This document shows positions 3,908 to 25,061 of a stretch of 32,000 nucleotides of DNA, one piece after another. Under the pieces are notes generated by a model. It was given only the letters and a program-made list of their open reading frames with translations. It ran no database searches and was not told the DNA's origin. The DNA comes from Thermodesulfobacteriota bacterium (GTDB taxonomy: Bacteria; Desulfobacterota; WTBG01; JAGOGO01): contig CP113000.1 in the NCBI GenBank assembly GCA_026625185.1, positions 1,245,622-1,277,621 of the forward strand. The letters are read 5' to 3'. The position numbers and the translations under genes were made by a program. Within the stretch, counting starts at the first letter, position 1; every line of letters starts with the position of its first letter.

Positions 3908-3914
3908 GGCAATA

Positions 3915-5534: not shown

Positions 5535-5538
5535 CTTC

Positions 5539-6252
5539 TTACCACTTTCTACTTTCGATAGATTGGGTGTTAAGAAACAAAAAAAATCCGATGACGGATA
5601 CATAATAGATCAAATCCCGACTATCAATTACCCCCCGTTGAAGGGAAACAAAATGCTTGCCTAATCCTAAAAAAGAAAATGTGGGTGCTAAGGAATTAGG
5701 AAGCGTAGCCAGGACAATATCTTCCCCAATAATAAATAAAGCGAAAGATAAAAGCGCAGCGATGATAAAAGCGACGATCTGGTTTTCTGCGAGGTTGGAG
5801 ACAAAAAGGCCGATTGCCAGATAAGCACCCCCGAGAAAACATGCTCCTACATAACCGCCAATAATGGGGCCAAAGTCAACATCGCCTAAAAAAAACAGGG
5901 TAAGGGGAAGGGAGAAGCTTAAGGCCAGGGCAATCATTACAAAAGAGAAACTGGCCAGAAATTTTCCCAGCACTACCTCATAATTTTTTACCGGCAAGGT
6001 CATCAACACTTCGATGGTCCCGATCTTCTTTTCCTCTGCCCACAGCCTCATGGTGACGGCGGGAATAAAGACAAGAAAGATCCAGGGAATAAAAAAGAAA
6101 TAATCCCGCATGGAAATCTGTCCCACAATAAAAAAACTTCGGAAAAATAGCCAGTTAGAAAACGCCAGAAAAGCAATGATAAAAATATAAGCGATCGGAG
6201 AATCAAAAAAAATGCGGAGCTCTTTTCGGAAAATGATCAGCGTGTTACGCAT
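5539..6252 (-). CDS. ABC-2 type transporter permease (GldF-like)
   Basis: 237-aa protein with about 6 TM segments, 4 nt downstream of the ATPase gene. The arrangement is typical of ABC-2 family operons. Confidence 0.8.
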   Translation of the reverse strand: MRNTLIIFRKELRIFFDSPIAYIFIIAFLAFSNWLFFRSFFIVGQISMRDYFFFIPWIFLVFIPAVTMRLWAEEKKIGTIEVLMTLPVKNYEVVLGKFLASFSFVMIALALSFSLPLTLFFLGDVDFGPIIGGYVGACFLGGAYLAIGLFVSNLAENQIVAFIIAALLSFALFIIGEDIVLATLPNSLAPTFSFLGLGKHFVSLQRGVIDSRDLIYYVSVIGFFLFLNTQSIESRKW

Positions 6253-6256
6253 TGAC

Positions 6257-7195
6257 TTAACTTTCTTTTAACGTAAGTTGTTGAAAAACATCCTCGAGAC
6301 TCAGCGCCTCCTGATGGAGTTCAGAGAGCACCCACCCATTCTCAGCTACCATTCGAAAAAGATCTTCGTTTATGGTCTCCTCTCCGTTGCTTATTATCTC
6401 AAAGCGACTCCGGTCATTTCCTTCGGTTTTTTGCACAGTAAAATTTTTTATTTTTTTAAAGGCGTTAAGCCGGTCTTTTATTTGCTCAACCGGCCCTCGA
6501 ACAACCATGGTTACCACCCCTCCGCCTCGAGCGCGACCGGACATCTCTTCAGGATTGCCACTGGCCACAATCCGGCCACGGTTCATGATGATGATTTTTT
6601 TACAGGTCGCTGATACTTCAGGCAAAATATGGGAACTGAGGATAACCGTTTTTTCTGCCCCCAGCCGTTTAATTAACTCTCGAATCTCAACGATTTGGTT
6701 TGGGTCCAAACCAACAGTCGGTTCATCAAGGATAAGAACCTCGGGGTTATGAATCATGGCCTGTGCCAAACCTACCCGCTGGCGAAACCCCTTGGAAAGC
6801 TCATCAATCTTTTTATTGAGCACCGGCTCCAACCCACAAACCTCAACCATTTTCTTGATCTGAGGATTAATTTTTTTCCGGGGGATATGCCGGATTTGAG
6901 CAATGAACTTTAGGTAGTCCACTACCCCCATCTCCGTATAGAGAGGGTTATTTTCGGGTAGATAACCGATGGAACGGCGGACTTCCAGAGACTGCGTAAA
7001 AACATTTTTACCCGCGATCGTGGCTGTTCCGGAATCCGCGGCAAGGTAACAGGTCAGGATTCGCATGGTAGTGGTTTTACCGGCTCCGTTTGGTCCCAGA
7101 AGTCCTACGATTTCTCCCTTGTTTACGGTAAAGGAGATGGTATCGACCGCAAGGGTAGCCCCAAAACGTTTGGTTAGGTTTTCTGCCTCAATCAT
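6257..7195 (-). CDS. ABC transporter ATP-binding protein (GldA-like)
   Basis: Walker A GPNGAGKTT, ABC signature LSKGFRQR, Walker B VLILDEP, H-loop SSHIL. Confidence 0.92.
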   Translation of the reverse strand: MIEAENLTKRFGATLAVDTISFTVNKGEIVGLLGPNGAGKTTTMRILTCYLAADSGTATIAGKNVFTQSLEVRRSIGYLPENNPLYTEMGVVDYLKFIAQIRHIPRKKINPQIKKMVEVCGLEPVLNKKIDELSKGFRQRVGLAQAMIHNPEVLILDEPTVGLDPNQIVEIRELIKRLGAEKTVILSSHILPEVSATCKKIIIMNRGRIVASGNPEEMSGRARGGGVVTMVVRGPVEQIKDRLNAFKKIKNFTVQKTEGNDRSRFEIISNGEETINEDLFRMVAENGWVLSELHQEALSLEDVFQQLTLKES

Positions 7196-7381
7196 AGATT
7201 TTTCTGAGCGAAATTTTTCCTAAAATTCTGACCGCTATGGTTTGGTATTTGAAGACAAGCAAAGTTTTTAAAAGTTCGCACGATGGCTGAAAATGTTTTT
7301 AAGCTTAAAAGCTTAAATAATTCTAAAAGGTCTTATTTTAAAAAATAAAAAAAAATTGTCAAGACAATATGTTTTCCGGGA

Positions 7382-7410
7382 TAGACAGAAACCGGTTAAC
7401 GTGATAATAT
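7382..7410 (+). promoter_or_regulatory. candidate sigma70-type promoter for the aroB'-gap-pgk-tpiA operon
   Basis: TAGACA (7382-7387), a 17-nt spacer, then TAATAT (7405-7410) preceded by TGA (extended -10 like). It lies in a 350-bp AT-rich divergent intergenic region, about 130 nt upstream of the GTG start. Confidence 0.35.
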
Positions 7411-7546
7411 GATTTATTTTAAAGAAACTGATATTATAACTGGTTGCATCAAAACAGAAAATACGATATTTTTTATATTTGTTTTTCAGTCAAGCAGGAG
7501 AAAGGCGACTACTTTTGTAAGAGCTTTAAATGTAGGAGAAAATCTA

Positions 7547-9600
<2,054 letters not shown>

Positions 9601-9621
9601 TGGGGTTTAGGAGGGATTATA

Positions 9622-10821
9622 ATGGCCATAAAGTATATAAAATATATTGACAAAATAAACTTGAAGGGTAAAAGGGTTCTGATTCGAGTGGACTTGAATG
9701 TGCCCCTCGATAAAAACAAGAATATTACCGATGGTAATCGGATTCAGAGCGTCTTACCCACGATTAACTACTCCATAAAACAAGATGCTAAAATCATCCT
9801 CATGTCTCATTTAGGTCGTCCCAAGGGCAAGCCAGATACTGAATTTAGCCTTTTACCGGTGGCCAAATACCTTTGTGAGGTCTTGCAGAAAAAAGTCATC
9901 CTGGCGCCGGATTGTATTGGTCAGGAGGTGGAAAAGCTTGTTTCTGAGATGCAGCCACGCGATATCCTCCTCTTAGAAAACTTAAGATTCCACCCGGAAG
10001 AGGAAAAAAACGACCGGGAGTTTGGCCGCAAACTGGCAAACCTTGCCGATGTTTATATTAATGACGCTTTTGGCACTGCCCACCGTGCCCATGCCTCAAA
10101 TGTAGCAGTGGTCGAATTTTTCAAGGAGTTTGGGGGTGGGTTTCTGATGAAAAACGAGATCGAATATTTTCGAAAAGCAATGGTTGAACCTGCGCGTCCC
10201 CTGGTTGCTATCATGGGGGGGGCAAAGGTATCTGAAAAACTTGATGCCTTGGAAAACTTGATCCAGAAAGTGGATAAAATTTTCATCGGTGGGGGGATGG
10301 CTTATACCTTTCTTAAGGCCCTGGGATATGACGTAGGAAAATCTCTGGTTGAAGGGGATTTGATTGAAACCGCAAAAATGATTATGGCAAAAGCGAAAGA
10401 ACGAAAGGTAGCACTCCTTCTTCCGGTTGATTGTGTTGCCGCCGATCAGCTTGATTCCCGCGCGTCTACAAAAATCACCTCGATTCAGGAGATCCCTCCG
10501 GGATGGATGGGTCTGGATATCGGCCCGGCAACGCGAGTACTTTTTGCCGAATCGCTTGCAGAGGCCAAGACCATTGTCTGGAATGGTCCGATGGGGGTTT
10601 TTGAGATGGAACCGTTCAGCAAGGGAACGTTCGCAATGGTGGAGGCTCTCGCGGAATCATCCGCCCTCACGATTGTGGGTGGTGGTGATACTGATGTGGC
10701 GGTGCACAAATTGAATGCAGCGGACAAGATTTCATATATTTCTACGGGCGGGGGGGCTTTTATCGAGATACTGAAAGGCAAACCTCTTCCATCGATCTCG
10801 GTCTTGGAAAGAACGGGCTGA
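9622..10821 (+). CDS. pgk: phosphoglycerate kinase
   Basis: RVDLNVP, MSHLGRPKG, NDAFGTAHRAHAS, GGGDT motifs. RBS AGGAGG lies upstream. Confidence 0.97.
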   Translation: MAIKYIKYIDKINLKGKRVLIRVDLNVPLDKNKNITDGNRIQSVLPTINYSIKQDAKIILMSHLGRPKGKPDTEFSLLPVAKYLCEVLQKKVILAPDCIGQEVEKLVSEMQPRDILLLENLRFHPEEEKNDREFGRKLANLADVYINDAFGTAHRAHASNVAVVEFFKEFGGGFLMKNEIEYFRKAMVEPARPLVAIMGGAKVSEKLDALENLIQKVDKIFIGGGMAYTFLKALGYDVGKSLVEGDLIETAKMIMAKAKERKVALLLPVDCVAADQLDSRASTKITSIQEIPPGWMGLDIGPATRVLFAESLAEAKTIVWNGPMGVFEMEPFSKGTFAMVEALAESSALTIVGGGDTDVAVHKLNAADKISYISTGGGAFIEILKGKPLPSISVLERTG

Positions 10822-10935
10822 AACCAAAACCAGGCGGTACAAGGGCAGAAGCCAACATTCAGAGAAGATGTTTTTACCCCGTTAGAAACCCGGTTAAATA
10901 TCAAATACCTAAAAGGGAGAAGAAGCGGGGGTTAA

Positions 10936-11712
10936 ATGACGAAAGGAAAACAAAGCATGAACCGAGTCTCTTTGATTGCCGGGAACTGGAAAATGTACAA
11001 AACCGTTCCTGAGGCGGTAGCAACCGCTGCTCAACTTAAAGAAGCAGTAAAAGACATCTCCGGACGAGAGATTGTGATTGCCCCCCCGTTCATTTCTCTC
11101 CATCCGGTGTCCCAGGTTATTAAAGGCTCAAACATTAATCTTTGTTCTCAAGATGTGTTCTGGGAAGAGGAAGGCGCTTTTACCGGCCAAATTTCTCCGG
11201 GCATGCTTCTCAGCGCCGGGTGCACGTATACCCTTATCGGTCACTCGGAGCGAAGGCAGTATTTTGGCGAGACCAATGAGACGGTGAACAAGAAGACTAA
11301 AAAAAGCATCGATCAAGGCCTGAAGGTTATCGTTTGCATTGGAGAGGCCCTGGAAGAGCGTGAAGCCGGGAAAACTTTTTCCGTTCTGGAAATTCAAATT
11401 TCCGAAGGGCTAAAGGGATTAACTCCTGTTCATATGGACAGTGTAGTCATCGCTTATGAACCGGTCTGGGCGATTGGTACCGGTAAAACAGCAACGGCTG
11501 CGCAAGCAGAACAAGCTCACCAGTTTATAAGGGGTAAGCTTAAAGAACAATTTGATACCGGCGTAGCTGAAAAAATCCGCATCCTTTACGGCGGAAGCGT
11601 TAAGCCGGATAATATTGACCAGTTGATGGCGGAGAAAAATATTGACGGTGTTTTGGTGGGGGGAGCTTCGCTTAAGGTGGACTCTTTTTCCCGGATTGTG
11701 AAATTCACCTAA
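10936..11712 (+). CDS. tpiA: triose-phosphate isomerase
   Basis: IAGNWKMY, IGHSERR, AYEPVWAIGTG, YGGSV motifs. An alternative start at ATG 10957 (MNRVSLIAGNWKM) gives the more typical N-terminus. Confidence 0.95.
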   Translation: MTKGKQSMNRVSLIAGNWKMYKTVPEAVATAAQLKEAVKDISGREIVIAPPFISLHPVSQVIKGSNINLCSQDVFWEEEGAFTGQISPGMLLSAGCTYTLIGHSERRQYFGETNETVNKKTKKSIDQGLKVIVCIGEALEEREAGKTFSVLEIQISEGLKGLTPVHMDSVVIAYEPVWAIGTGKTATAAQAEQAHQFIRGKLKEQFDTGVAEKIRILYGGSVKPDNIDQLMAEKNIDGVLVGGASLKVDSFSRIVKFT

Positions 11713-11851
11713 GATATATATTATTTCAATGTGTTATCGGTTACCGGGAATGGACATTGAGTAAATAAAAAATTCTTGATAAAATTTTTAAAAAACAATA
11801 TTATCCCGAACTTGAAAACCTGACATTTGAAGATAAAATGGAGAAATAATC

Positions 11852-12214
11852 ATGAGTACTGTTCTTACTATCATTCATATAACCGTTTGCATTGCTTTAA
11901 TTTGCATCGTGCTTCTCCAAAGCGGTAAAGGTGCAAGCCTGGGGGCTGCCTTTGGGGGAGCAACTCAGACTGTCTTTGGGGCTTCCGGCGGAGCGGGTTT
12001 TTTTGAAAAGCTCACTACCGCCATAGCCGTTATTTTTATGGTTACTTCCGTTCTCCTGACCTATATCTCGGCAAAAAGAGGCGGAGAGACGATTATGAAA
12101 CCAAAGGCCGCGCAAGAAGAAAAAGCGGTCCCCAAAATTCCCCCGGCTCCAGGCACAGGAGCCGGGCAAAAAGCACCAAGCTCTATGCCGGCAACTCCTG
12201 CTCCTCAAAAATAA
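11852..12214 (+). CDS. secG: preprotein translocase subunit SecG
   Basis: LLQSGKGASLGAAFGG...FGASG motif between two TM helices. The conserved tpiA-secG synteny is present. It has a Pro/Ala-rich C-terminal tail. Confidence 0.9.
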   Translation: MSTVLTIIHITVCIALICIVLLQSGKGASLGAAFGGATQTVFGASGGAGFFEKLTTAIAVIFMVTSVLLTYISAKRGGETIMKPKAAQEEKAVPKIPPAPGTGAGQKAPSSMPATPAPQK

Positions 12215-12231
12215 GCAGGGTACCTTATAAT

Positions 12232-12314
<83 letters not shown>

Positions 12315-12371
12315 CATTCCTTCCTTTGAATTTCAATGTGTTACAACTCTTAAGGTGGTAAAAATCCTTTG

Positions 12372-14554: not shown

Positions 14555-15277
14555 ATGATTCAGTTCGTCTTGGTGCATGGTGCGTGGCACGGGGGCTGGT
14601 GCTGGCGTCGTGTAGCCGATGTTCTCAGGGCTCGCGGGCACCGGGTTTTCGCGCCCAGCCTCACGGGAGTGGGGGATCGCGCGCATCTCTTCTCCAAAGA
14701 AATTTCAATGCAGACTCATGTGGACGACATCCTTTCCGTGGTTGAAACTGAGGAATTGAGGGACTTCGTTCTGGTTGGACATAGCTATGGAGGCTTCGTG
14801 ATCTCCGGAGTCGCTGACACACTCCGAGAGCGCGTGTCTCACTATGTTTACTTGGATGCTAGTGTTCCACCCGAAATGTCACCAGGCGCATCCTTCAGCT
14901 GGGCCGACTTTAATCCTCCCGAGGCACGTGAAGAACGATTGAAGTCGGTTCAAGAACAGGGTAAGGGTGCGGCACTCCCTCCACCTCCGCCCAGTGCATT
15001 CGCTGTGACCAACCCTGCGGACGTCGCCTGGCTGCAGCGGCAATTGCGGCCTATGCCGGTTGGGACCTATATCGGAGCCTTTACCTTCAAGAGCTCCGGG
15101 AGCAATGGATTGAAGCGCACCTACATTGCTTCAACCAAACCCCCCTATGCTTTGCTCGCCTCTACCCGTAACCGTATAAAGGGTGACCATACCTGGTCGT
15201 TCACGACAATCGAGGCAGGGCACGACTCAATGGTTACCGCCCCTGACGAGCTGGCTTCTTTGTTAATGGTGGCCTGA
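14555..15277 (+). CDS. alpha/beta hydrolase, SABP2 / methylesterase / hydroxynitrile-lyase-like subfamily
   Basis: N-terminal FVLVHGAWHGGWCW motif, nucleophile elbow GHSYGG, C-terminal GHDSM (catalytic His context). It is much more GC-rich than its flanks. Confidence 0.85.
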   Translation: MIQFVLVHGAWHGGWCWRRVADVLRARGHRVFAPSLTGVGDRAHLFSKEISMQTHVDDILSVVETEELRDFVLVGHSYGGFVISGVADTLRERVSHYVYLDASVPPEMSPGASFSWADFNPPEAREERLKSVQEQGKGAALPPPPPSAFAVTNPADVAWLQRQLRPMPVGTYIGAFTFKSSGSNGLKRTYIASTKPPYALLASTRNRIKGDHTWSFTTIEAGHDSMVTAPDELASLLMVA

Positions 15278-15454
15278 AACCCATCCTGTTGAGTCCGCCA
15301 TAGACCGGTATCAAACTTTTGCATGCAGCGTACCGGCCAACAGCGTCCCTTCGCGGTGCTGCTTGGACAGCCGCTGATTCAAGACCTTATACAGAAAAAA
15401 AAAGTGAATGCACATAAAATTAAAAAATAATTCTTAAAAATTTAGGAGGTAAAT

Positions 15455-16672
15455 ATGCTTGATTGCACTATCACCGTGGAATCCGGCGTTACCTGGATTA
15501 ATTTAAAAGGTCGTATTGACAGTATGACCTCACCGGAGATACAGCGGCAGATTAATGACCTCATTTTAGGGGGAGAAAGGCACTTAGTGGCTAACCTTGA
15601 GGAGATCAACTATATCAGCAGCGCAGGTTTACGCGTTTTTCTGGGAGCGCAGAAACAGCTCAAAAAGGTGGGAGGGGAGATTATTTTTTATAAAGTCTCG
15701 AGTTCAATATTTGACGTGTTTAAACTCGGGGCTTTTGATCAGATATTCCGTTTCGCGTCAACCAGAGAAGAAATTACCGGCGCACTTCATGCCGATAAAA
15801 CCTCTTTTCCTATTCGCTCAAAAGAGGTTGAGAAAATAGTATTTAACTATCTTGAAAAAAAAGCTGATCCTGGTTTCCTGAAGGTGGTGGGGTCTCAGGA
15901 AAATCTTGCTTGGGCAAAGTATATTGAGAAAGATGTGGTTACTATCAAATCAGAAGAACTCCAGTTCGGAACCGGTCTGGCTACTCTGGGTGATTGCTAC
16001 GGGGAATACAAGAATTTATTCGGCGAAGCAATGGTCATCAACCGAAACTTCTTTTTTTATCCGGCAGTTAAACGTCCGGCAGTTGATTTCATGCTTGCTG
16101 CCAACCAAGAATCCAGTCTTGAATACCGGTTTCTGCACGGCTTTGGATTCACTGGGTCCTATAAGTACGTTGTTTTATTTGAGAGTACGGAGGGCTTGGT
16201 AGAGCTGGAACGCCTGGTGAATGCTTTTTTTTCGATTTCCCAGGCGAATCTTTTGGGTTTTGTGATTCTCGGGGAAAGCAAAGGTCTCTGGGGAATGCAT
16301 TTAAAAAATAGCCCTATTTTTGAGAATCAACCTAAAAACGGCAAAGAGATTTTTGACCCGATAAACTTTGCTGACTGGGTAAACTTTCCTGTGGAGGCGG
16401 GAGATATCAACCGGATTATTGCTGCAACCGGGATTGCGATCAAGGAAGTGAGCAGGGAGCGCGGTGAAGTACAAAGCCTTTTGTCCAAGGGAGCCTGTTT
16501 TCATGTTCATGGGGCAGTATTTTCTCAGGAGCCGCTCAGTAAGAAAATAGAGCAGTTTGAAAACGAGCTTACCCGGGTTCTGACCGAACTTGAGGTTTAT
16601 AAGGTGCAGCATATACTCGGCAAGACCAGATTCAGCAGCGGAATGGTGGGGCTCGTTGAGCTTAGTTCATGA
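15455..16672 (+). CDS. STAS-domain (anti-sigma-factor-antagonist-like) protein fused to an uncharacterised domain of about 290 aa
   Basis: Residues 1 to about 110 are SpoIIAA/RsbV-like (INLKGRIDS...LEEINYISSAGLRVFLGAQKQLKKVGGEIIFYKVSSSIFDVFKLGAFDQIF). I recognise no motif in the rest. A strong RBS AGGAGG lies 6 nt upstream. It is the first gene of the ABC operon. Confidence 0.8.
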   Translation: MLDCTITVESGVTWINLKGRIDSMTSPEIQRQINDLILGGERHLVANLEEINYISSAGLRVFLGAQKQLKKVGGEIIFYKVSSSIFDVFKLGAFDQIFRFASTREEITGALHADKTSFPIRSKEVEKIVFNYLEKKADPGFLKVVGSQENLAWAKYIEKDVVTIKSEELQFGTGLATLGDCYGEYKNLFGEAMVINRNFFFYPAVKRPAVDFMLAANQESSLEYRFLHGFGFTGSYKYVVLFESTEGLVELERLVNAFFSISQANLLGFVILGESKGLWGMHLKNSPIFENQPKNGKEIFDPINFADWVNFPVEAGDINRIIAATGIAIKEVSRERGEVQSLLSKGACFHVHGAVFSQEPLSKKIEQFENELTRVLTELEVYKVQHILGKTRFSSGMVGLVELSS

Positions 16673-16703
16673 TCAAATAGTTATATCTCGTTAGGGGTTT
16701 TCA

Positions 16704-19700
16704 ATGGAACTCTGGGTTGGTGCATTAAGTCTCGGTTTGTTATACGCCTTCATGACCATGGGGGTTTTCATCACCTTTCGCATTCATAATTTCCCTGACA
16801 TTACCGTGGACGGAAGCTTTACCTCAGGGGCGGCAATAATGGCGTTACTTATTGTCACCGGATTTAACCCATTTCTGGCCCTGGGGGCTGCCTTTATCAT
16901 CGGAGCAGTCGCGGGTTGCGCTACCGCTTTGATCAATACCCGTTTAAATGTCAATGGCCTCCTGGCTGGTATTTTGGTCATGACCGGTCTTTATTCTATT
17001 AACCTGCACATCATGGGCCGGTCAAATATACCTCTTCTCAACCAGACAACGGTATTTACTTATCTCTCTGGGCTAAATCCAGGACTACAGGGAGAGATCT
17101 GGACTGGTATCGTCCTCAGTTTGGTTATGGTCCTTTTCTGGCTTGTTGTTTCTTTGTTTTTTAAAACTGATTTTGGGATTGCCATGCGGATTACCGGTAA
17201 TAATCCCACCATGGCGGCGGCAAATGGTGTTAATGTCGGCAGAATGACTATCTTTGGGGTAGCTTTGGCAAACGGTCTGGTTGGTGTTTCCGGCGGCTTG
17301 GTTGCCCAATATCAGGGATTTGCCGACATTGGAATGGGAATTGGAACGGTAGTTATCGGGCTTGCGGCAGTAATCATCGGCGAGTCCATCTTGAGGTCCC
17401 ACTCCATGTACGCAAAAGTGTTAAGCGTGCTCATTGGATCGGTGATTTTCCGGCTAATGATTGCCATTGCGCTTTTTGTGGGCATGAACCCTATTGACCT
17501 TAAACTTCTCACCGCAGGTTTTGTCCTTATTACCCTTATTATTTCTAAAACTGTTGCGGGCCGGGAAAAGAGGAGGGGGGAACTTTTCGGAAAGGTAGCC
17601 GGTTTTTTTCAGGGTAAACGAGTTGCTTACGGTTTTACTGCCATCATCATTATTATTGCGGTTGCATGGTTTGGGTATAAAAATTTTTCCCAAAGATTAA
17701 TGACACCACAAAAAATTAATAAAATCAAGGTGGTGCAGCTTACTGATAATGGACTTTTAAATATAACCCGGGACAGTTTCGTTAAAGAAATGGAAAAAAT
17801 CGGTTATCAGGATGGGCAGAATTGCACCATTAGCCTGGAAAATGCTCATGGTGATCTGCCCACCGTCAACTCCATCATTGATAAATTTCTTCAGGAGAAG
17901 GCGGACATTATCGTCACCATTTCCACCGGATGTACCCAGGCAGCAATCAATAAGATCAAGGACCGGCCAATAGTTTTTGCTACGGTTGCCAATCCGTTTA
18001 TTATTGGTGCCGGAAAATCAGAAACTGACCATGTAGCTAACGTTACTGGTGTGTACGGCTCGGTTCCCATGGACAAAACTATGGAGGTGGTCAGAAAAAT
18101 CCTGCCGGGAAAGCTCGCCATTGGAGCCATCTGGGATTCAAGCCAGGCAAATTCAGTCTTCAATGCAGAAAATCTTAAAAAAGCAGCTCAAGCTTGTGAT
18201 GGGGTGAGTTTTGCGGGAACAACCATTACCAGCTCAGCGGAAGTATATGAGGGCGCCGTATCTTTGGTACAAAAGGGGATTGGCGCTTTTGTTTTGCCGC
18301 CCGACAACATTGTTTATTCAGCTTTTGAGTCGGTGATAAAAGCCGCCAGAACCAAAAACATCCCCGTCTTCACCAGTGATGTAGAAAGGCTTGCTGATGG
18401 CGCTCTTGGTGTGCTGGGATATGATTATGCTTTAAGCGGTATTCAGGCTGCCCATCTGGTTGACCGGGTGCTAAAAGGGGAAAAACCACGGGATATCCCT
18501 TTTGAGCGGTATAGAAAGCTTACTTTTGGGCTTAACCTGGAGGTGGCAAAAACAATTGGTATATCCATATCACCTGAAGTTATTGCTCAAGCTACCATAG
18601 TTCTCGGAGGGAGAGAGACCAAAAAGCTTAAACCTAAAATAGGCCTTGTTCAGTTTGCCTTTGAACCTAATGTGGAGCTCTGCAAGCAAGGAATTCTTAA
18701 AGCCCTGGCCGAAAATGATTACCGAGATAAGGATAACATCGAAATCATCTACAAAAATGCTCAGGCTGACTTCTCTCTGATTAATTCCATTATTCAGGAT
18801 TTCCTAAGAAGGAAGGTTGATATCATTGTCCCCCTTTCAACCCCGTGTGTGCAGTCGGCAGTCCAGTTTGCTGCCGGGAAAAAAGAAACTAAAGTTGTTT
18901 TTACCTACATATTTGATCCTTACCGGATAGGAGCGGCAAAAACTCCGACCGACCATGTTCCCACTATAACGGGCGTGGCCTGCTTTCCGCCGATAGAGGG
19001 GATGCTGAATTTAATAAAAGAGATTTTCCCGGACCGGAAAAAGGTGGGCATTGTCTGGAATAGCTCGGAGGCAAACTCGGAAGCAGTGCTCCTTAAGATA
19101 CGTACCCAGGCGGCTAAGACAGGTCTTGAGGTTATCGAGGCAACCGTGACCAGCCCGGCGGAGGTTCTGGAGGCAGCACGGTCTTTGGTGAATAAAAAGG
19201 CTCAGGTTTTTTTAAATGGCGGAGACAATACCCTTAATGTGAGCTTTGACAGTTTTGTAAAGGTTGCGGACGAGAACAAAATCCCCGTTTTTTCAGTAGA
19301 TTCAGAATTTATTGAAAAAGGTTCTTTTGCGGTTCTGGGGCCTGATTATTTTCAAACCGGTTATGAAGGAGGAAACTATTTGGCCAAGGTATTGGGTGGT
19401 GAAGATATCGCAAACCTCCCTATCGGTCAGACCAAAAAAACCCTTTTTATGATCAACTTGGATATTGCCCGCAAATATGGGTTTGAGGTAGATAATGCTA
19501 TCGTGAAAAGGGCGCAGAAAGTCATTGACAGCAGCGCTAAGGTTATTGCCGCAGGCCCGCCGGTGCGGAAAAAGAGACTGGCGCTTTTTCTTTTTAGTGA
19601 ATACATTTCAATGCGTGAAACTGCCCAAGGGGTTACGGAAGAGCTTGAGCGAAGCGGCATTTTGCGGCAGCATAATATAACTATGGACACAAAAAATTCT

Positions 19701-20462
19701 CAGAACGATTTTTATTTGGCCCAGTCAATTGCTCAGGATATTGTGCGGCAAAAATATGACTATATCATCACGCTTTCTACTCCTGCACTTCAGGTAATGG
19801 CAAATGCCAATAAAAAGATTCCCCATATCTTTGGCGCGGTGACTGATCCTTACCGCATGGGGGTGGCAAAAAGCAGCACTGACCACCTTCCGAACGTGAC
19901 CGGGGTGGCGACTCTTCAACCGGTGGAGACAACCATCCGGGTTATGCGGGAACTTTTTCCTCAGGCAAAAAAAGTAGGAATTATCTGGAACCCCGCGGAA
20001 GCCTGCTCCGAAGCCTGTACCTACAAAGTCCGGGACGCGGTTAAAAAATATAGCTTTGCTCTACAGGAAATAAATGTTGACAGCACCAGTGAGGTGCTTG
20101 ATGCGTTGAAGTCCCTCTTAAACCGGAGAATTGATCTGTTTCTGACCTCCGGTGACAATACGGTCATTATGGCGCTTGAGTCGGTTGCAAAATTGCTGAA
20201 GGAGCATAAAATTCCTTATTTTACCAACGTTCCCTCGGATGTTGACCGCGGTGCGTTTGTTTCCATCGGTGCAGACTATAATGAGGTGGGTAAGGAAACA
20301 GCCCGCATGGCAGAAAGGGTAATAAGCGGAGAAAACCCCCAGGGCATTCCCATTAAAAATTATGTTCCCGAAAAAATGGCAGTTAATCTCTCCCTGGCGG
20401 GAGAGTACGGGATCAAGATTCCGGAGCCATTGCTTAAAAAAGCCGCCTATATCAAGAGGTAG
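16704..20462 (+). CDS. ABC transporter permease (COG4120-type) fused through an extra TM helix to three tandem PF04392/COG2984-type substrate-binding domains
   Basis: The N-terminal 300 aa or so are polytopic (FPDITVDGSF, LAGILVMTGLYSINLHIMG). A linker TM follows (VAYGFTAIIIIIAVAWFGY). Then come three units of about 300 aa sharing DIIVxxST, DPxxxGxxKxxTDHxxNVTGV, KVGIIWNxxEANS and IPVF landmarks. Confidence 0.85.
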   Translation: MELWVGALSLGLLYAFMTMGVFITFRIHNFPDITVDGSFTSGAAIMALLIVTGFNPFLALGAAFIIGAVAGCATALINTRLNVNGLLAGILVMTGLYSINLHIMGRSNIPLLNQTTVFTYLSGLNPGLQGEIWTGIVLSLVMVLFWLVVSLFFKTDFGIAMRITGNNPTMAAANGVNVGRMTIFGVALANGLVGVSGGLVAQYQGFADIGMGIGTVVIGLAAVIIGESILRSHSMYAKVLSVLIGSVIFRLMIAIALFVGMNPIDLKLLTAGFVLITLIISKTVAGREKRRGELFGKVAGFFQGKRVAYGFTAIIIIIAVAWFGYKNFSQRLMTPQKINKIKVVQLTDNGLLNITRDSFVKEMEKIGYQDGQNCTISLENAHGDLPTVNSIIDKFLQEKADIIVTISTGCTQAAINKIKDRPIVFATVANPFIIGAGKSETDHVANVTGVYGSVPMDKTMEVVRKILPGKLAIGAIWDSSQANSVFNAENLKKAAQACDGVSFAGTTITSSAEVYEGAVSLVQKGIGAFVLPPDNIVYSAFESVIKAARTKNIPVFTSDVERLADGALGVLGYDYALSGIQAAHLVDRVLKGEKPRDIPFERYRKLTFGLNLEVAKTIGISISPEVIAQATIVLGGRETKKLKPKIGLVQFAFEPNVELCKQGILKALAENDYRDKDNIEIIYKNAQADFSLINSIIQDFLRRKVDIIVPLSTPCVQSAVQFAAGKKETKVVFTYIFDPYRIGAAKTPTDHVPTITGVACFPPIEGMLNLIKEIFPDRKKVGIVWNSSEANSEAVLLKIRTQAAKTGLEVIEATVTSPAEVLEAARSLVNKKAQVFLNGGDNTLNVSFDSFVKVADENKIPVFSVDSEFIEKGSFAVLGPDYFQTGYEGGNYLAKVLGGEDIANLPIGQTKKTLFMINLDIARKYGFEVDNAIVKRAQKVIDSSAKVIAAGPPVRKKRLALFLFSEYISMRETAQGVTEELERSGILRQHNITMDTKNSQNDFYLAQSIAQDIVRQKYDYIITLSTPALQVMANANKKIPHIFGAVTDPYRMGVAKSSTDHLPNVTGVATLQPVETTIRVMRELFPQAKKVGIIWNPAEACSEACTYKVRDAVKKYSFALQEINVDSTSEVLDALKSLLNRRIDLFLTSGDNTVIMALESVAKLLKEHKIPYFTNVPSDVDRGAFVSIGADYNEVGKETARMAERVISGENPQGIPIKNYVPEKMAVNLSLAGEYGIKIPEPLLKKAAYIKR

Positions 20463-20464
20463 CG

Positions 20465-21277
20465 ATGATAAAAATCATTGATGTTCACAAAAGGTTTAAC
20501 CCCGGCACTGCCAATGAGGTTTATGCTCTCCGGGGCATCAACCTGCATATCGAAGAAGGTGAGTTTGTTACCGTTATCGGAACCAATGGCTCAGGCAAAT
20601 CTACCCTGCTCAATGCACTCGCCGGCGCCTTCCTGCCTGATTCCGGCTCCATAGATATTGACGGTTTGGAGGTAACGGATAAAAAAGATTTTCAAAGGGC
20701 AAAGTATATTGCCCGGGTTTTTCAAAATCCTTTTATGGGAACTGCTCCCGAGATGACCATTGCGGAAAATCTTCACATGGCCTCCTTGAGATGCAAAAGA
20801 AGCTTTCCAAAAAGAGGATTAAACGCTGAACGTCTTAAGACTTACAGAGCGGAAGTTGCTCAGCTGGAGATGCAGCTGGAGGACCGTCTTCGTAATTTTA
20901 TCGGCACCCTCTCCGGCGGTCAGCGGCAGGCATTGACCCTGCTAATGGCGGTGATCACTGAGCCCAAGGTGCTCCTTCTGGATGAGCACACGGCAGCTTT
21001 GGATCCTAAGTCGGCAGCCCAGGTTATAAAGTTGACCAAAAAATTTATTGAAGGGACTAAGCTTACCACCCTTATGGTTACCCACAGCATGCAGCAAGCT
21101 CTCGACCTCGGTACCCGCACCATTATGATGAACAAAGGACAGATTATTGACGATATCCCTCAGAAAGAAAAACAGCGGATTACAGTTAATGACCTGTTGG
21201 ACAAATTCGCCGAGCTTCGCAAAGCCGAACAGTTAACCGACGAAATGATAGAGGAGTTAAGGCAAGGATATGTTTAA
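20465..21277 (+). CDS. ABC transporter ATP-binding protein (COG1101-type partner of the COG4120 permease)
   Basis: Walker A GTNGSGKST, signature LSGGQRQ, Walker B LLLDEHTAALD, H-loop VTHSM. The start is 2 nt after the permease stop. Confidence 0.92.
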   Translation: MIKIIDVHKRFNPGTANEVYALRGINLHIEEGEFVTVIGTNGSGKSTLLNALAGAFLPDSGSIDIDGLEVTDKKDFQRAKYIARVFQNPFMGTAPEMTIAENLHMASLRCKRSFPKRGLNAERLKTYRAEVAQLEMQLEDRLRNFIGTLSGGQRQALTLLMAVITEPKVLLLDEHTAALDPKSAAQVIKLTKKFIEGTKLTTLMVTHSMQQALDLGTRTIMMNKGQIIDDIPQKEKQRITVNDLLDKFAELRKAEQLTDEMIEELRQGYV

Positions 21278-21295
21278 TCCGGGTCAGTAAAATGA

Positions 21296-21706
21296 CTATT
21301 TTTTTATTTTCATGCAGAGTTTCAGAATATTCTTTCCTTCCTCGTGCCGGTAATCCAATTCATCCACCATCTTTCGGATCAGAAAAATCCCTAAGCCTCC
21401 GATTCTCCGCTCAAATAAATCACCGGATAAATTTGGACTATTTTCAGTTAAAGGATTGAAAGGATGGCCCCAGTCCTGGATGACAAAACAAAGTTTATCC
21501 TTATTCAGCCGGGTGCACTTTACTTCCACATCACCTTCTTGCGTGGGATAAGCATAATTAATAATATTGGTGAGAACCTCTTCCAGAACCAATTCTATCC
21601 TTGAAACCATTTCCTGGGTTATATGCCAGTCTTTTATTGTCTGAAGGACAAAAGAGCGAAAGGTTTCCAATGATTCCAATTTTGCCGGTAAACGTAAGTT
21701 ATCCAT
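21296..21706 (-). CDS. RsbW/SpoIIAB-like anti-sigma regulatory factor (HATPase_c serine kinase)
   Basis: 136 aa with N-box EEVLTNIINYAY, a DWGHPFNP segment and a GGLGIFLIRKMVDE G2-box. It is the last gene of the partner-switching operon. Confidence 0.85.
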   Translation of the reverse strand: MDNLRLPAKLESLETFRSFVLQTIKDWHITQEMVSRIELVLEEVLTNIINYAYPTQEGDVEVKCTRLNKDKLCFVIQDWGHPFNPLTENSPNLSGDLFERRIGGLGIFLIRKMVDELDYRHEEGKNILKLCMKIKK

Positions 21707-21752
21707 GCCTTAATCTTGAAGTCTAATTAAGCTGAGCTTTAAAAGTTAATAA

Positions 21753-23720
21753 TTAAGCATATTGAAAAAATCCTGGATAAGGAGAATCCTCTTTTATTCC
21801 TTTAAAGCGCAAAGCTAAAACCGTAATATCGTCCGCCTGGCTGACTTCTTTAGAAAAGCTTTTAACCGCATTAACCACATTATTTACGAGCTCTTCGGGA
21901 GAATTGTCGGGGTAGGTTCGGGTGGTCTCCAGTAGTCGTTGTTCGGAGTAGAGCTCTTTGTTTTCGTTTAGGGCTTCCGTTACTCCATCGGTATAAACCA
22001 GCAGCAAATCTCCTGAGCGAAGCTCAACTTTTTTCGTATCGTATTGGGATTCCTCAAAGACTCCCAGGAAGAATCCTTTCGGAAGTTCCAGCCATTCCGG
22101 TTCTTGACCGGCCCGAACAAGCAGCGGAGGATTATGGCCTGCATTGGAGTAAAGAAGTTCTCCGGATTTGAAATTCAAAATACCGCAAAAAACGGTGACG
22201 AACATATTTGATTCATTGTCTTGGCAGAGTTCCAAATTTACTCTTTTGAGGATGTCGGAAGGCTTAAGCTGAGGTTCAGCGGTTCCTTTCAGAAGAGTCT
22301 TTGTTACCGCCATAAAGAGAGCTGCCGGTATGCCTTTATCCGAGACATCACCCACAACAAAAAAAAGATGCTCTTCATCGAGGAGAAAGAAATCGTAAAG
22401 ATCACCGCCGATTTCTTTAGCGGGTTCAAGGGAAGCAAAAATTTCAAATTCAACCTTATCCGGAAACGGCGGAAAGTGCTTTGGAAGAAAACTCATCTGA
22501 ATGGTGCGGGCAATCTTGAGCTCGCTCTCAATCCGCTCCTTGGCTGCGGTGGTGGCGGCCAGGTTGGCAATGTATTCCTTAAGGGCAACTTTCATCTCCT
22601 TAAAAGATCGGGTTAGTTTTCCGATTTCATCATTTGCCCGCACCTCCGGTAGCTCAATATCCAGATTCCCCTTGACGATTTCCGAGGTTGATCGGGCAAG
22701 AGAACCGAGCGGCTTGGTAATAGTCCGGGAGAAGAAGGCAATGACGATACAGAGGAAGGTGAATCCAACCACGCCGATGAGAAGGACTTGTTTGCTTAAC
22801 CGGCTCACATCAGCAAATAGTTCTTCCTCCGGGAAGATCACTCCGAGGGACCAGCCGTTGGAAGGCAAGGGGGCATAATACATCCAGGATTTTTTTCCGG
22901 AGACAAAGTCTTGGAGAGGCACGAACCCCGGTTCGCCGGTGATCATTTTTCTCCCAACTTGGCGCAGGGTGGAGTCTTTTCTCGCTTCGGCAATACTGAA
23001 GATGCTTTCCTTCATGATCAATTGCTTTTCGGGGTGCGTGACCATGACCCCGTTTTGGGAGATCAAAAAAGCGTATCCGGTCTTATAGATTTTTACCGAA
23101 GATACAATATCCTTTAACCACATCAGGGAAATATCAGCAGTGACAACTCCCCGGAATTTATTTTTGCCGTCTATTTTTTTATAAAAGGGCACGGAATAAG
23201 TGGACATAATGATATTGCCGGCGCCTTCATCATAAAAGGGCTCGCTCCATACCGGGGAGTCAATTTCCTTGGGGATCTGAAACCAGTCGAGGTAAAAATA
23301 CCGGTAGGAGTCACTTCCCAAAAATGTTAAGATGATCTTTTCATTATTACGGTAATAATAAGGAGCAAAGTATAATAAAGTCGGATTAAAGGCGTACGGT
23401 TCAAAGGCAAAGGTTGAACCAAATATCTCCGGATTATTTGCAACCGCGCTTTGTACTAATTTCAAAAGATCTTGGCGTTGGTAGGGGTATTTTTCAATGA
23501 TGGAGGCTTGATTAAGCGGCACCTCTTCAACCGACCTGAGGACCGTCTCAATTTTATAAACGGTAGATAGGGTGAGGTTGCGGGCGTTTTCTTCAATGTT
23601 TTTTAGTAAAGTTTTTTTTGAATAATGGTAGTTATAAACGAAAGCCGCAACAAAGATGATGGTGGTGCTGGTTAAGATAAAGATAATGAGTTTAAAAGCG
23701 AGCCCTAAATTTTTAATCAT
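21753..23720 (-). CDS. membrane sensor phosphatase: TM, Cache-like periplasmic domain, TM, HAMP, PP2C (SpoIIE/RsbU family)
   Basis: Two TM helices flank about 280 aa containing YKTGYAFLISQNGVMVTHPE (Cache-like). HAMP segment is TKPLGSLARSTSEIVKGNLDIELP...IGKLTRSFKEM. PP2C motifs are ARTIQMSFLP, GGDLYDFF, VVGDVSDKGIPAALFMA, YTDGVTEA, DDITVLALRF. Confidence 0.88.
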   Translation of the reverse strand: MIKNLGLAFKLIIFILTSTTIIFVAAFVYNYHYSKKTLLKNIEENARNLTLSTVYKIETVLRSVEEVPLNQASIIEKYPYQRQDLLKLVQSAVANNPEIFGSTFAFEPYAFNPTLLYFAPYYYRNNEKIILTFLGSDSYRYFYLDWFQIPKEIDSPVWSEPFYDEGAGNIIMSTYSVPFYKKIDGKNKFRGVVTADISLMWLKDIVSSVKIYKTGYAFLISQNGVMVTHPEKQLIMKESIFSIAEARKDSTLRQVGRKMITGEPGFVPLQDFVSGKKSWMYYAPLPSNGWSLGVIFPEEELFADVSRLSKQVLLIGVVGFTFLCIVIAFFSRTITKPLGSLARSTSEIVKGNLDIELPEVRANDEIGKLTRSFKEMKVALKEYIANLAATTAAKERIESELKIARTIQMSFLPKHFPPFPDKVEFEIFASLEPAKEIGGDLYDFFLLDEEHLFFVVGDVSDKGIPAALFMAVTKTLLKGTAEPQLKPSDILKRVNLELCQDNESNMFVTVFCGILNFKSGELLYSNAGHNPPLLVRAGQEPEWLELPKGFFLGVFEESQYDTKKVELRSGDLLLVYTDGVTEALNENKELYSEQRLLETTRTYPDNSPEELVNNVVNAVKSFSKEVSQADDITVLALRFKGIKEDSPYPGFFQYA

Positions 23721-24696
23721 GGGATACGCAATCTATAAAAAAATCCGAGAAACTCGGGACAGCAGTGATTAAGCGATTTACCTTAAGCTCCTGAACAACG
23801 CGATTATAATCGCCGGCTTGAAGAGTTCCCAAAGGGACAGTATTACCGGACGGATTAATGATGTCTTTCATACGTTCCAGCATCCATTTCTGGTGAACCC
23901 GGTTCGTAGCGATATTGCCGTCCACTACATACTTCATAACAATATCGAGGGCCGGTTCGGGGTTATCGAAGGCGTACTCCCATCCTTCGAGGGATGCTTT
24001 CACAAAATCACGGCACAAGGCGGGATCATGGTCAAAGGTCTTTTTTAAACAGTAAATACCGTCTTCGGGAAAGTTTACGCTATATTCAGAAAGGAAAAAG
24101 GTCGTTAATTCAGTCGGATTTATACCGGAATTGATAATGGTATGGTACTCATTGTACCACATGGCGGACGCTACATCTACCCCGTTGCGTAAAAATAGGT
24201 TCAGGGTTGCGGACTGGGGAATAATGGTAACGTGAAGGTTGTGCTTTTTGAAAAATGCCTTGGGCTGGACCTGAAATTCACTTCCCCAGAGACCCACTTT
24301 CCTCCCGTTGATATCCCGGGGGGAGTATATGCCGCTTGACTTTTTCGCCACCAACATGAGGGATGATCGTTGGACAATTTGACCGATATTAACTATGGGG
24401 AGCCCCTGGGAGCGCTTTTGGATTCCGGTGGAGAGGAACATGGTTCCAAAATCCGCGCGTTTCTCCTTTAATAGCGCCGAAGGTGGGTAATCGGGGCCGC
24501 CACGTAAAATTTTTACCTCCAATCCGTGTTTCCGGTAAAATCCTTTCTCCTGGGCGACAAAGTAACCGGCAAACTGGGACTGAGGAACCCATTGGGGTAT
24601 AAAAGTCGTTTTTTTTAAACCCTTTTCGTTTGCCTGAGCCGCTATAGTTATCAATAAAAGCAAGGCAAAAAGAAAGAATATTTTAAATTTTAGCAC
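23713..24696 (-). CDS. periplasmic substrate-binding protein, NMT1/THI5-like (NitT/TauT-type SBP)
   Basis: Signal peptide MLKFKIFFLFALLLLITIAAQA and a QWVPQSQFAGYFVAQEKGFYRKHGLEVKI motif. Its stop overlaps the phosphatase start by 8 nt (ATGATTAA). Confidence 0.8.
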   Translation of the reverse strand: MLKFKIFFLFALLLLITIAAQANEKGLKKTTFIPQWVPQSQFAGYFVAQEKGFYRKHGLEVKILRGGPDYPPSALLKEKRADFGTMFLSTGIQKRSQGLPIVNIGQIVQRSSLMLVAKKSSGIYSPRDINGRKVGLWGSEFQVQPKAFFKKHNLHVTIIPQSATLNLFLRNGVDVASAMWYNEYHTIINSGINPTELTTFFLSEYSVNFPEDGIYCLKKTFDHDPALCRDFVKASLEGWEYAFDNPEPALDIVMKYVVDGNIATNRVHQKWMLERMKDIINPSGNTVPLGTLQAGDYNRVVQELKVNRLITAVPSFSDFFIDCVSHD

Positions 24697-24728: not shown

Positions 24729-25061
24729 TTAAATCTGTGACCGAGCAGATTCCACGGATTCAAAGATGGGGATAATAGAACGGAATCCGGAAATTTCGAA
24801 AACCTCCTTTACCATACCTTTAAGTCCGGCAATCAGAAGCTTTCCATCTTTTTCTTTAAGTTTTTTGGTTATCGTGAGGATGCTGCGAAGGCCGGAGCTG
24901 CTGATATAATCAAGCGCAGCAAAGTCAAGTATTAAAGCGTTATTTCCTTCAGCAATTAATGCGGCCATTTCTTTTTCAAACTCCGGTGAGGAAACAGCAT
25001 CCATCCTCCCTTTTAATGAAACCACTGCTGCCTCTTGTTCCCGTTTTTTTTCTATCTCCAT
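24729..25061 (-). CDS. STAS-domain anti-sigma-factor antagonist (RsbV/SpoIIAA-like)
   Basis: 110 aa: VSLKGRMDAVSSPEFEKEM...LDFAALDYISSSGLRSILTITKKLKEKDGKLLIAGLKGMVKEVFEISGF. The serine at the phospho-acceptor position is retained. Confidence 0.88.
   Translation of the reverse strand: MEIEKKREQEAAVVSLKGRMDAVSSPEFEKEMAALIAEGNNALILDFAALDYISSSGLRSILTITKKLKEKDGKLLIAGLKGMVKEVFEISGFRSIIPIFESVESARSQI

Follow-up and report, generated by a model that had tools for sequence, protein, structure and literature searches.

Substrate-binding domains (SBDs) joined covalently to an ABC importer are known from GlnPQ of Lactococcus lactis and other Gram-positives, in which different binding domains stand in tandem on the translocator of a homodimeric importer, and from OpuA (OpuABC) of L. 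lactis, likewise a homodimeric importer, in which a binding domain lies C-terminal to the membrane domain. In importers of the TrpXYZ, CD0873–CD0875 and VC_1101 type, the receptor is instead an independent lipoprotein, with Trp, Tyr or Phe as its ligand, and permease and ATPase are encoded by one gene each. Of the solved binding proteins of this kind, CD0873 (6HNI) binds Tyr, VC_1101 (3LKV) binds Phe and SP1069 (3LFT) binds Trp. They share the contact residues T108, A127, T129, D152 and N233, in the numbering of Streptococcus suis TrpX (PMC9382623). Here we describe a locus of a Thermodesulfobacteriota bacterium that draws on the same three protein families as the TrpXYZ-type importers, again with one gene for the permease and one for the ATPase, and in which the permease and three tandem binding domains are encoded by one gene. 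The locus lies in a 32,000-nt stretch of contig CP113000.1 (assembly GCA_026625185.1, positions 1,245,622 to 1,277,621 of the forward strand), which is referred to below as the window and to which the coordinates given for the fusion gene and its neighbours refer. The fusion protein resembles GlnPQ in carrying different binding domains covalently in tandem, and OpuA in carrying them C-terminal to the membrane domain. The locus also encodes a SpoIIAA-like STAS protein with a conserved candidate phospho-acceptor Ser and has kinase and phosphatase genes nearby, features that recall the MlaB–MlaF pair and the SpoIIAA/SpoIIAB/SpoIIE and RsbV/RsbW/RsbU systems.

One gene for a permease and three binding domains

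The fusion gene (16704..20462, plus strand) is a single unbroken open reading frame (ORF) that encodes a protein of 1252 residues. A Pfam scan of the whole protein placed BPD_transp_2 (PF02653) at residues 7–277 with 76.4 bits (gathering cut-off 26.8 bits), together with three stretches of PF04392 (ABC_sub_bind) that total 528 bits. Scanned singly against PF04392 (gathering cut-off 25.9 bits), SBD1, SBD2 and SBD3 scored 184.2, 186.9 and 181.3 bits and covered positions 1–290, 1–293 and 7–290 of the 293-position profile, so that each match runs from end to end. A hidden Markov model built from the three units delimited SBD1 at residues 337–635 (17712..18608), SBD2 at residues 641–944 (18624..19535) and SBD3 at residues 956–1250 (19569..20453), all on the plus strand, with linkers of 5 residues between SBD1 and SBD2 and 11 residues between SBD2 and SBD3 when counted between aligned domain ends. 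The first-pass annotation of this stretch had proposed a permease followed by three tandem PF04392 binding domains, with limits at 17712–18620, 18630–19540 and 19566–20459. Pfam indeed called three full-length domains, the envelopes agreed with those limits to within a few residues, and all the landmark motifs that had been cited were located in the protein. PDB matches by phmmer were 6hni for SBD1 (8e-43; 3lkv and 3lft were also matched) and for SBD2 (1.4e-45), and 3lkv for SBD3 (1.3e-40). Judged from these end-to-end alignments, which extend over about 285–295 residues with E-values of 1e-26 to 1e-45, every unit is a homologue of the two-lobe class I/cluster B structures 6hni, 3lkv and 3lft. 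The strong divergence that had been claimed among the units is reflected in pairwise identities of 29–36%, which were obtained from MAFFT alignments, since blastp of the 1252-residue protein against itself returned the identity match alone.

The existence of this architecture in one gene is confirmed. The identical 1252-residue product was called on at least six contigs, and in the three contigs that were compared, which derive from separate sources and samples (NCBI GCA_029216075.1, JGI 3300019861 and Logan SRR21915714), the neighbouring genes were the same as well. The GC content is level across the unit junctions. It had been feared that an assembly error or a frameshift might have joined separate genes; however, no stop codon splits the ORF in the independent assemblies or in more than 100 homologues. 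At E ≤ 1e-10, 384 homologous proteins were retrieved, and among the best 120 of these (49–85% identity) 69 have three units, 42 have two, eight have four and one has five. When a single genome was scanned for each GTDB species, 28 loci with one-, two- or three-unit forms emerged, the carriers being Thermodesulfobacteriota (Syntrophobacteraceae, Desulfobacteraceae and Syntrophorhabdus), Aminicenantes, Omnitrophota and KSB1; the cultured carrier among these loci is Desulfoferrobacter suflitae DRH4, which has one unit. In one two-unit relative (locus L026, 6236–9074), the second SBD is split over two overlapping ORFs, probably owing to a frameshift or assembly error in that metagenome-assembled genome (MAG). 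The first-pass annotation was aware of no described triple-SBD fusion in this transporter family. Our search of the full-text literature, beyond whose reach much subscription literature lies, likewise found no paper on the fusion, on the tandem arrays or on the STAS partner, yet hundreds of such proteins stand in the databases with unspecific names, among them 'hypothetical protein', 'putative ABC transport system permease protein' and 'ABC transporter substrate binding protein'.

To classify the binding domains, 385 units were taken from the homologues and loci and each was assigned to the nearest of the three units of the window protein. The pattern 1-2-3 was found in 69 proteins, 1-3 in 47, 1-2-3-3 in eight and 1-2 in seven; the patterns 1-3-3 (five proteins), 1 alone (five) and 1-3-3-3-3 (one) were rarer, and there were a few exceptions. 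Type 1 is nearly always proximal to the membrane, and one single-unit relative (L028) holds type 2 only. A neighbour-joining tree was made for 110 units, with the solved proteins as its root. In it, the three types form three pure clades, that of SBD1 being monophyletic, with mean identities of 62%, 62% and 57% within types 1, 2 and 3, respectively, and of 29–33% between types. These clades and identities indicate that the units are old paralogues and that the triplication long predates the divergence of the carrier phyla. The extra units of the four- and five-unit proteins are duplicates of type 3 and are 58–83% identical within one protein. The order of the units is thus fixed (almost always 1-2-3), and the array expands mainly through copying of the distal unit. 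Between aligned domain ends, the inter-domain gaps of the three-unit proteins have medians of 8 and 12 residues.

PF04392 units are also repeated outside the fusion. Free polypeptides with two to five tandem PF04392 units and no permease were observed (P0250, P0252, P0254, P0255, P0256, P0261 and P0283; e.g., L035, 6001–9735), with two, three, four or five units in P0283, P0261, P0250 and P0254. The N-termini of P0250, P0252 and P0254 form a transmembrane (TM) helix resembling a signal anchor (MWLALRRLALGFSLIIASSAILLF...). P0269 (648 residues) and P0293 (662 residues) are fusions of the opposite order, in which one N-terminal PF04392 domain is followed by a BPD_transp_2 permease; taken together with the window protein, they indicate that both fusion polarities exist in this transporter family. 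In a KSB1 MAG (L020, 8010–8999 and 10256–12220), a separate PF04392 gene is followed, in this order, by a gene for the STAS protein described below, a permease gene with one fused SBD and an ATPase gene, an arrangement that may be an intermediate. The window protein is one well-populated variant of a wider and apparently undescribed repetition of PF04392, and is less singular than first assumed.

Predicted topology and binding pockets

The permease core (residues 1–281; 16704..17546, plus strand) is of the COG4120 type, with nine predicted TM helices. In an AlphaFold2 model of residues 1–345 (pLDDT 74.5), predicted helices at residues 3–27, 34–51, 56–81, 85–106 and 130–154 precede a coupling segment with two short helices within residues 156–173; after it, the model has helices at residues 178–204, 214–229, 235–259 and 263–285, a short helix at residues 291–301 and a final helix at residues 305–328. 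Mean column identity of the core across the family is 69%, and both the loop KTDFGIAMRITGNNPTMAAANGVNVGR (residues 154–180) and the segment of residues 154–183 (KTDFGIAMRITGNNPTMAAANGVNV...; 17163..17252) are nearly invariant in the family. We take this segment to be a coupling loop of the EAA type known from LivH/RbsC-type permeases; it would face the ATPase. The core is followed by a tail (residues 282–306; 17547..17621) rich in lysine and arginine (K+R), in which eight K+R stand against two aspartates plus glutamates (family means 7.6 and 1.0) and which includes the short helix at 291–301, of amphipathic character. Next come the extra helix VAYGFTAIIIIIAVAWFGY (residues 307–325; 17622..17678; Kyte–Doolittle 19-mer (KD19) value 2.04) and a linker of about 11 residues (326–336; 17679..17711), all on the plus strand, which leads to SBD1. 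In 19 relatives the extra helix is hydrophobic, with a family mean peak of 2.15, and its sequence is not kept; conservation of hydrophobicity and not of sequence is as expected for a pure membrane anchor.

An additional TM helix serving as anchor, with all three SBDs outside the cell behind it, had been proposed in the first-pass annotation, and our predictions agree with this arrangement. Four predicted TM helices lie between the coupling loop and the tail, which would leave residues 282–306 in the cytoplasm and let the extra helix lead the chain to the outside. Across 33 family members, loops 1, 3, 5, 7 and 9 carry on average 15.7 K+R, compared with 1.8 on the N-terminus plus loops 2, 4, 6 and 8, and no member has a difference below 9, the minimum found. 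From helix parity and this positive-inside count, an extracellular location of the three SBDs, and of the N-terminus of the permease, is well supported by prediction. A cytoplasmic location of the SBDs was considered and rejected as unlikely on the same two grounds. It is plausible that the anchor is the fossil signal peptide of a once-separate binding protein. The geometry, in which a hydrophobic segment is followed by a linker of about 11 residues and the first beta-strand, is the same and favours this idea, as does the similar, uncleaved-looking anchor with which related free tandem proteins begin.

The positions that contact the ligand in the characterised binding proteins were taken from PMC9382623 and PMC6816091 and were mapped onto the units through HMMER alignments and an alignment of 388 sequences. 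At three positions the residue is the same in types 1, 2 and 3: Thr at T108 (100%, 99% and 100%, respectively), Asn at N233 (97%, 100% and 95%) and Tyr at Y279 (100%, 85% and 91%). D152 is replaced throughout, by Gly in type 1 (99%), Cys in type 2 (96%) and Thr in type 3 (96%). At A127 and T129, type 1 has Thr and Ala, type 2 has Tyr and then Tyr or Phe, and type 3 has Ala or Gly and then Thr, the window units themselves having T/A, Y/F and A/T. At Glu263, types 1 and 2 have Asp (100% and 90%) and type 3 is variable. The replacements at D152, A127 and T129 are 93–99% conserved within type, except at A127 of type 3 (Ala in 55%) and at T129 of type 2 (Tyr and Phe together 92%); taking all contact positions, the residues are type-specific and 85–100% conserved save for two variable positions of type 3. 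The pocket signature of SBD1 is T408, T427, A429, N430, Y451-G452, N535, D559 and Y575, in accordance with a type-1 consensus of 94–100%, and that of SBD2, which follows the type-2 consensus, is T713, Y735, F737, D738, A759-C760, N842, D866 and Y882. In SBD3 the corresponding residues are T1026, A1045, T1047, D1048, A1069-T1070, N1152, V1176, which is variable in the family, and Y1192.

From the conservation of type-specific contact residues we conclude that purifying selection maintains a pocket of its own in each unit, and none of them looks like a dead spacer. The earlier suggestion that the three units bind different ligands is therefore supported, as far as can be judged from the residues at the contact positions; a relay had been named as the other possibility. 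Equivalence to TrpX, and with it uptake of Trp, Tyr or Phe, was ruled out by scores below the cut-off and by the altered pocket residues: against the TrpX equivalog NF041285 of NCBIfam the units score 180.7, 193.8 and 193.7 bits, with a cut-off of 390 bits (the 562 bits of the whole protein being a sum over the three units), and the TrpX contact set is incomplete in all of them, T108 and N233 being kept and D152 replaced. The Asp at the D152 position is expected to bind the alpha-amino group, and the fact that every unit has lost it suggests that the ligands are not alpha-amino acids; the aromatic amino acids that the characterised relatives bind are improbable. All three units also contain a 'TDH' motif (residues 441–443, 749–751 and 1059–1061; nt 18024, 18948 and 19878, plus strand), whose His is 99–100% invariant in the 385 units of all three types and is preceded by Asp or Glu, whereas the solved Trp, Tyr and Phe binders have K/Q-P-G at this place. 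This His was considered as a ligand contact and was not adopted as one, because it is placed upstream of a strand that bears the contact residue at its far end and, on a coordinate-free estimate, is probably distant from the pocket.

Operon partners and neighbouring genes

The first gene of the conserved operon (15455..16672, plus strand), which had been missed in the first-pass annotation, encodes a protein of 405 residues (STAS405) in which Pfam recognises a STAS domain only. A full-length homologue (36–60% identity) stands immediately 5′ of the fusion in 27 of the 28 GTDB loci, a count of related loci with a readable upstream flank that holds whatever the unit number. A homologue is also found upstream in a one-unit locus that was reached from the STAS side (L033) and in a five-unit locus (L034), and in an unfused relative the gene order is binding protein, STAS410, permease and ATPase. 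An AlphaFold2 model of STAS405 has a pLDDT of 90 and a pTM of 0.84. By Pfam and Foldseek, its N-terminal domain (residues 1–112) is SpoIIAA/RsbV-like; the Foldseek matches include SpoIIAA (1th8_B, 8.5e-10), RsbV (also about 1e-9) and, more weakly, MlaB of the MlaFEB ABC transporter (7ch7_E, 4e-4; 7ch8 was also matched). The C-terminal domain, of about 290 residues, has no Pfam match and is predicted to have a fold like that of alpha-acetolactate decarboxylase (ALDC), the Foldseek match to 5yho_A having an E-value of 7e-7 and a TMt of 0.61 and the ALDC matches together ranging over TMt 0.57–0.63 at 10–12% identity. The likeness is one of fold only, with no sequence match of this domain to ALDC (PF03306), Pfam, NCBIfam or PDB sequences. 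The C-terminal 292 residues have 280 homologues, and those listed are about 405 residues long with a STAS domain, apart from a few shorter and apparently truncated ones.

Residues S55, S56, G58, H350, H352 and H386 of STAS405 are invariant, the three His being candidate counterparts of the three-His zinc site of ALDC, and S56 aligns with the phospho-acceptor Ser58 of Bacillus subtilis SpoIIAA. In its predicted fold, its candidate phospho-acceptor Ser and the presence of kinase and PP2C phosphatase genes nearby, STAS405 resembles the phospho-regulated STAS proteins. With its 405 residues and its added ALDC-like domain, it is not of the single-domain, anti-sigma-acting type of about 110 residues. 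MlaB is the STAS subunit of the MlaFEDB ABC transporter. Partner-switching STAS modules with non-sigma targets are also described (PMC13555669). Given these precedents, STAS405 most likely acts in the cytoplasm as a partner that regulates the transporter.

The ATPase gene (20465..21277, plus strand; 270 residues; PF00005, 108 bits) starts 2 nt past the stop codon of the permease gene. In translation all its motifs are intact, namely Walker A (GTNGSGKST), the Q-loop, LSGGQ, Walker B (LLLDE, with the catalytic Glu) and the H-loop. The ATPase is 68–79% identical in related loci and is encoded downstream of the fusion gene wherever the locus extends that far, directly so in most. No second BPD_transp_2 gene was found in the window, which has one permease gene and one ATPase gene of this system. 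With a single gene for each, a permease2–ATPase2 complex with six receptors is the simplest reading, and six receptors per homodimeric complex, as had been proposed before, are a reasonable inference. In an Rfam scan of the window, neither a riboswitch nor a T-box was found upstream of the operon, and promoter and terminator scans of 15200–21800 returned matches at chance level and were uninformative.

Convergent with the operon, on the minus strand, lie genes for an RsbW/SpoIIAB-like serine kinase (21296..21706; HATPase_c_2, 136 residues) and a membrane-bound PP2C phosphatase with dCache, HAMP and SpoIIE domains (21753..23720; 655 residues), both identified by Pfam. They are followed on the same strand by genes for an NMT1/THI5-family binding protein (23713..24696), whose stop codon overlaps the phosphatase start by 8 nt, and for a single-domain STAS protein of the anti-anti-sigma type (24729..25061; 110 residues; PF01740, 83.6 bits). 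Homologues of the kinase occur near the operon in L001, L024 and L034. Full-length homologues of the phosphatase (58–62% identity) occur near it in L008, L019 and L024, the operon of L034 has a gene of this domain composition nearby, and in these four loci an NMT1 gene is likewise paired with the phosphatase gene. Homologues of the small STAS protein are present in L001, L008, L019, L024, L027 and L034. In L034 the genes for the kinase, the small STAS protein, STAS404, a permease with five fused SBDs and the ATPase are all on one strand. No sigma factor or other output gene was seen in the window. Elsewhere in the window are a housekeeping block (7409–12315) with a DHQS-family gene and genes for GAPDH, PGK, TIM and SecG, ending in a tRNA-Leu(GAG) at 12231–12315, and an unrelated ABC system (2888–7195, minus strand) made up of an ATPase, an ABC-2 membrane protein, ABC_transp_aux (GldG-like) and DUF4340. 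The latter adjoins genes for a DegP/HtrA-type protease (1370–2758) and a PHO4-family phosphate transporter (288–1307).

Proposed working, alternatives and known systems

We consider it likely that the locus encodes an ABC importer with several tethered receptors that belongs to the COG4120/COG1101 (TrpXYZ-like) family and is probably under the control of a phospho-STAS protein. In this importer, the receptors would be covalently tethered to the membrane subunit instead of being free lipoproteins. The chain would run through nine core TM helices, the cytoplasmic K/R-rich tail and the anchor helix to three external SBDs on linkers of 5–11 residues, and the permease2–ATPase2 complex would display six receptors. 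The benefit would be a wider substrate range and a high local concentration of receptors at one translocator, as in GlnPQ. The state of STAS405 would be set by phosphorylation of Ser56, through the RsbW-like kinase and the dCache-SpoIIE phosphatase. The intact ATPase motifs, the 69% conservation of the permease core and the spacing of 2 nt between the two genes favour a working importer.

Several observations weigh against this model. In the 15-residue windows flanking the anchor, the K+R bias is modest (4.2 versus 3.0). No solved homologue of the permease was found in the PDB by phmmer or with a 19-sequence profile, even at E ≤ 10, and the helix count is thus not fixed by a structure; the best Foldseek matches of the permease, to the type II importer membrane domains PsaC, BtuC, HI1471, FhuB and HmuU, are weak (1e-3 to 5e-2, and 1e-3 to 1e-2 for the first three). 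The reach of the distal units to the translocator is questionable, and the roles in ligand binding, transport and phosphorylation are all predicted ones. Kinase or phosphatase genes lie within 8 kb in just about one third of the related loci. Finally, in L035 the gene for STAS412 (9737–10975) directly follows that for a membrane-anchored protein with four PF04392 units (6001–9735), and no transporter genes adjoin them; the STAS partner may thus belong with the binding domains, or with the ligand of these, and not with the ATPase.

This pairing of a STAS protein with an anchored array would also suit the main rival explanation, which we regard as unlikely, namely that the fusion is mainly a sensor ('transceptor') whose SBDs report several external ligands via the ABC machinery to STAS405, uptake being secondary or absent. 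STAS405 would then feed a network of the RsbW-like kinase, the small STAS protein and the dCache-SpoIIE phosphatase. Such a role would account for the near-constant presence of the STAS405 gene beside the operon, in the GTDB loci as in L033, L034 and the unfused relative, and for the recurrence of partner-switching genes around it, in the window and in the six related loci named above for the small STAS protein. It would also be in line with the matches of PF04392-like domains to the PDB entries 6k1w and 8wxm ('periplasmic component-like protein'), of about 165–190 residues, which indicate that this fold is used outside complete binding proteins. However, the ATPase retains every catalytic motif and the permease core, including the coupling loop, is highly conserved; both would be expected of a working pump, although they are still compatible with signalling. 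Neither the window, in which no sigma factor or other output gene was seen, nor the two thirds of related loci that have no kinase or phosphatase gene within 8 kb speak for a signalling output. Sensing and transport are not exclusive of each other, and they may be combined in a more detailed scheme, which we put forward tentatively and hold to be rather doubtful as a whole. It would comprise a type II-like importer with one to five tethered receptors for non-amino-acid ligands and a STAS plus ALDC-like subunit that binds a cytoplasmic metabolite or metal, is switched at Ser56 and gates or reads out the importer; sensing by the dCache phosphatase and the NMT1 protein would be coupled to transport through partner switching free of a sigma factor.

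A second alternative, in our view very improbable, is that the type 1 unit alone is a working receptor and the others are degenerate spacers, scaffolds or adhesin-like surface modules. Type 1 is retained in most one-unit forms and almost always comes first; moreover, the variation of unit number from one to five implies that distal units are dispensable in some lineages, and the PF04392 protein CD0873 has also been described as an adhesin (PMC6816091). Nevertheless, types 2 and 3 are about as conserved as type 1 (62% and 57% mean identity against 62%), they keep T108, N233 and Y279, and at other contact positions they have residues of their own that are 88–100% conserved. Type 3, which retains A-x-T-D-P, is nearest to the canonical pocket, and the only unit of L028 is of type 2. 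That the long ORF is merely an assembly or frameshift merger of a permease gene with separate binding-protein genes can be dismissed, nothing having been found in its support (the split second unit of L026 looks like a local frameshift or contig-end effect in one MAG), whereas different samples yielded the same ORF in their NCBI, JGI and Logan assemblies, its continuous architecture is shared by more than 120 homologues from many phyla, signal peptides and start-codon contexts are absent from the individual units, which are joined by linkers of merely 5–11 residues, and composition stays level across the junctions.

The competition and docking of binding proteins at an ABC translocator are best approached by experiment in tethered tandem receptors, and knowledge from them so far rests on GlnPQ, a type I system with two domains. 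The present family offers a natural series of one to five receptors on another membrane fold, in fixed order and with distinct pockets, in which reach, competition and substrate range could be related to receptor number. The STAS plus ALDC-like neighbour and the recurrent kinase and phosphatase genes suggest phospho-STAS control of an ABC importer, of which no description was found in our literature search. The family is widespread in uncultured anaerobes, and the identities of its substrates would add to knowledge of how these organisms feed.

By analogy, the window protein works like GlnPQ and OpuA, and it stands outside their families: its Pfam domains are BPD_transp_2 and PF04392, not BPD_transp_1 with PF00497 or OpuAC-type domains, and by this measure there is no homology to GlnP or OpuABC. 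In GlnPQ, domains of differing specificity compete for one translocator with four receptors per complex, where the window fusion would probably have six, and the linkers are of 14 and 19 residues (PMC8025302), compared with 5 and 11 here. The domains of GlnPQ are N-terminal, behind a signal sequence, whereas the SBDs of the window protein follow the membrane domain and the added anchor helix, at the C-terminal side; those of GlnPQ are class II/PF00497-type domains on a type I BPD_transp_1 translocator, whereas ours are class I/cluster B PF04392 domains on a type II-like BPD_transp_2 permease; and those of GlnPQ number two, whereas the window family has one to five units and a conserved STAS partner gene. 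OpuA has a single binding domain of another family, a type I membrane domain and CBS domains on its ATPase, in place of which the window operon has a separate STAS protein; the regulation of OpuA acts from the cytoplasmic side, in response to ionic strength and c-di-AMP (PMC7673798), and runs through the CBS domains.

The importers of the TrpXYZ type, although built from the same families, differ in that their receptors are neither fused nor triplicated. The window units lack D152, units 1 and 2 lack the A-x-T motif, and all have an invariant His that is missing from the solved proteins. The streptococcal trpX gene has a riboswitch or T-box upstream, in contrast to the window operon, for which Rfam found none. 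Compared with MlaB and the partner-switching systems, STAS405 has an extra ALDC-like domain, no sigma factor gene lies nearby, and its binding to the ATPase is putative. The concept of an importer with tethered receptors is thus already known from GlnPQ and OpuA, whereas the protein families, the polarity of the fusion, the anchor helix, the number of units and the regulatory partner are different.

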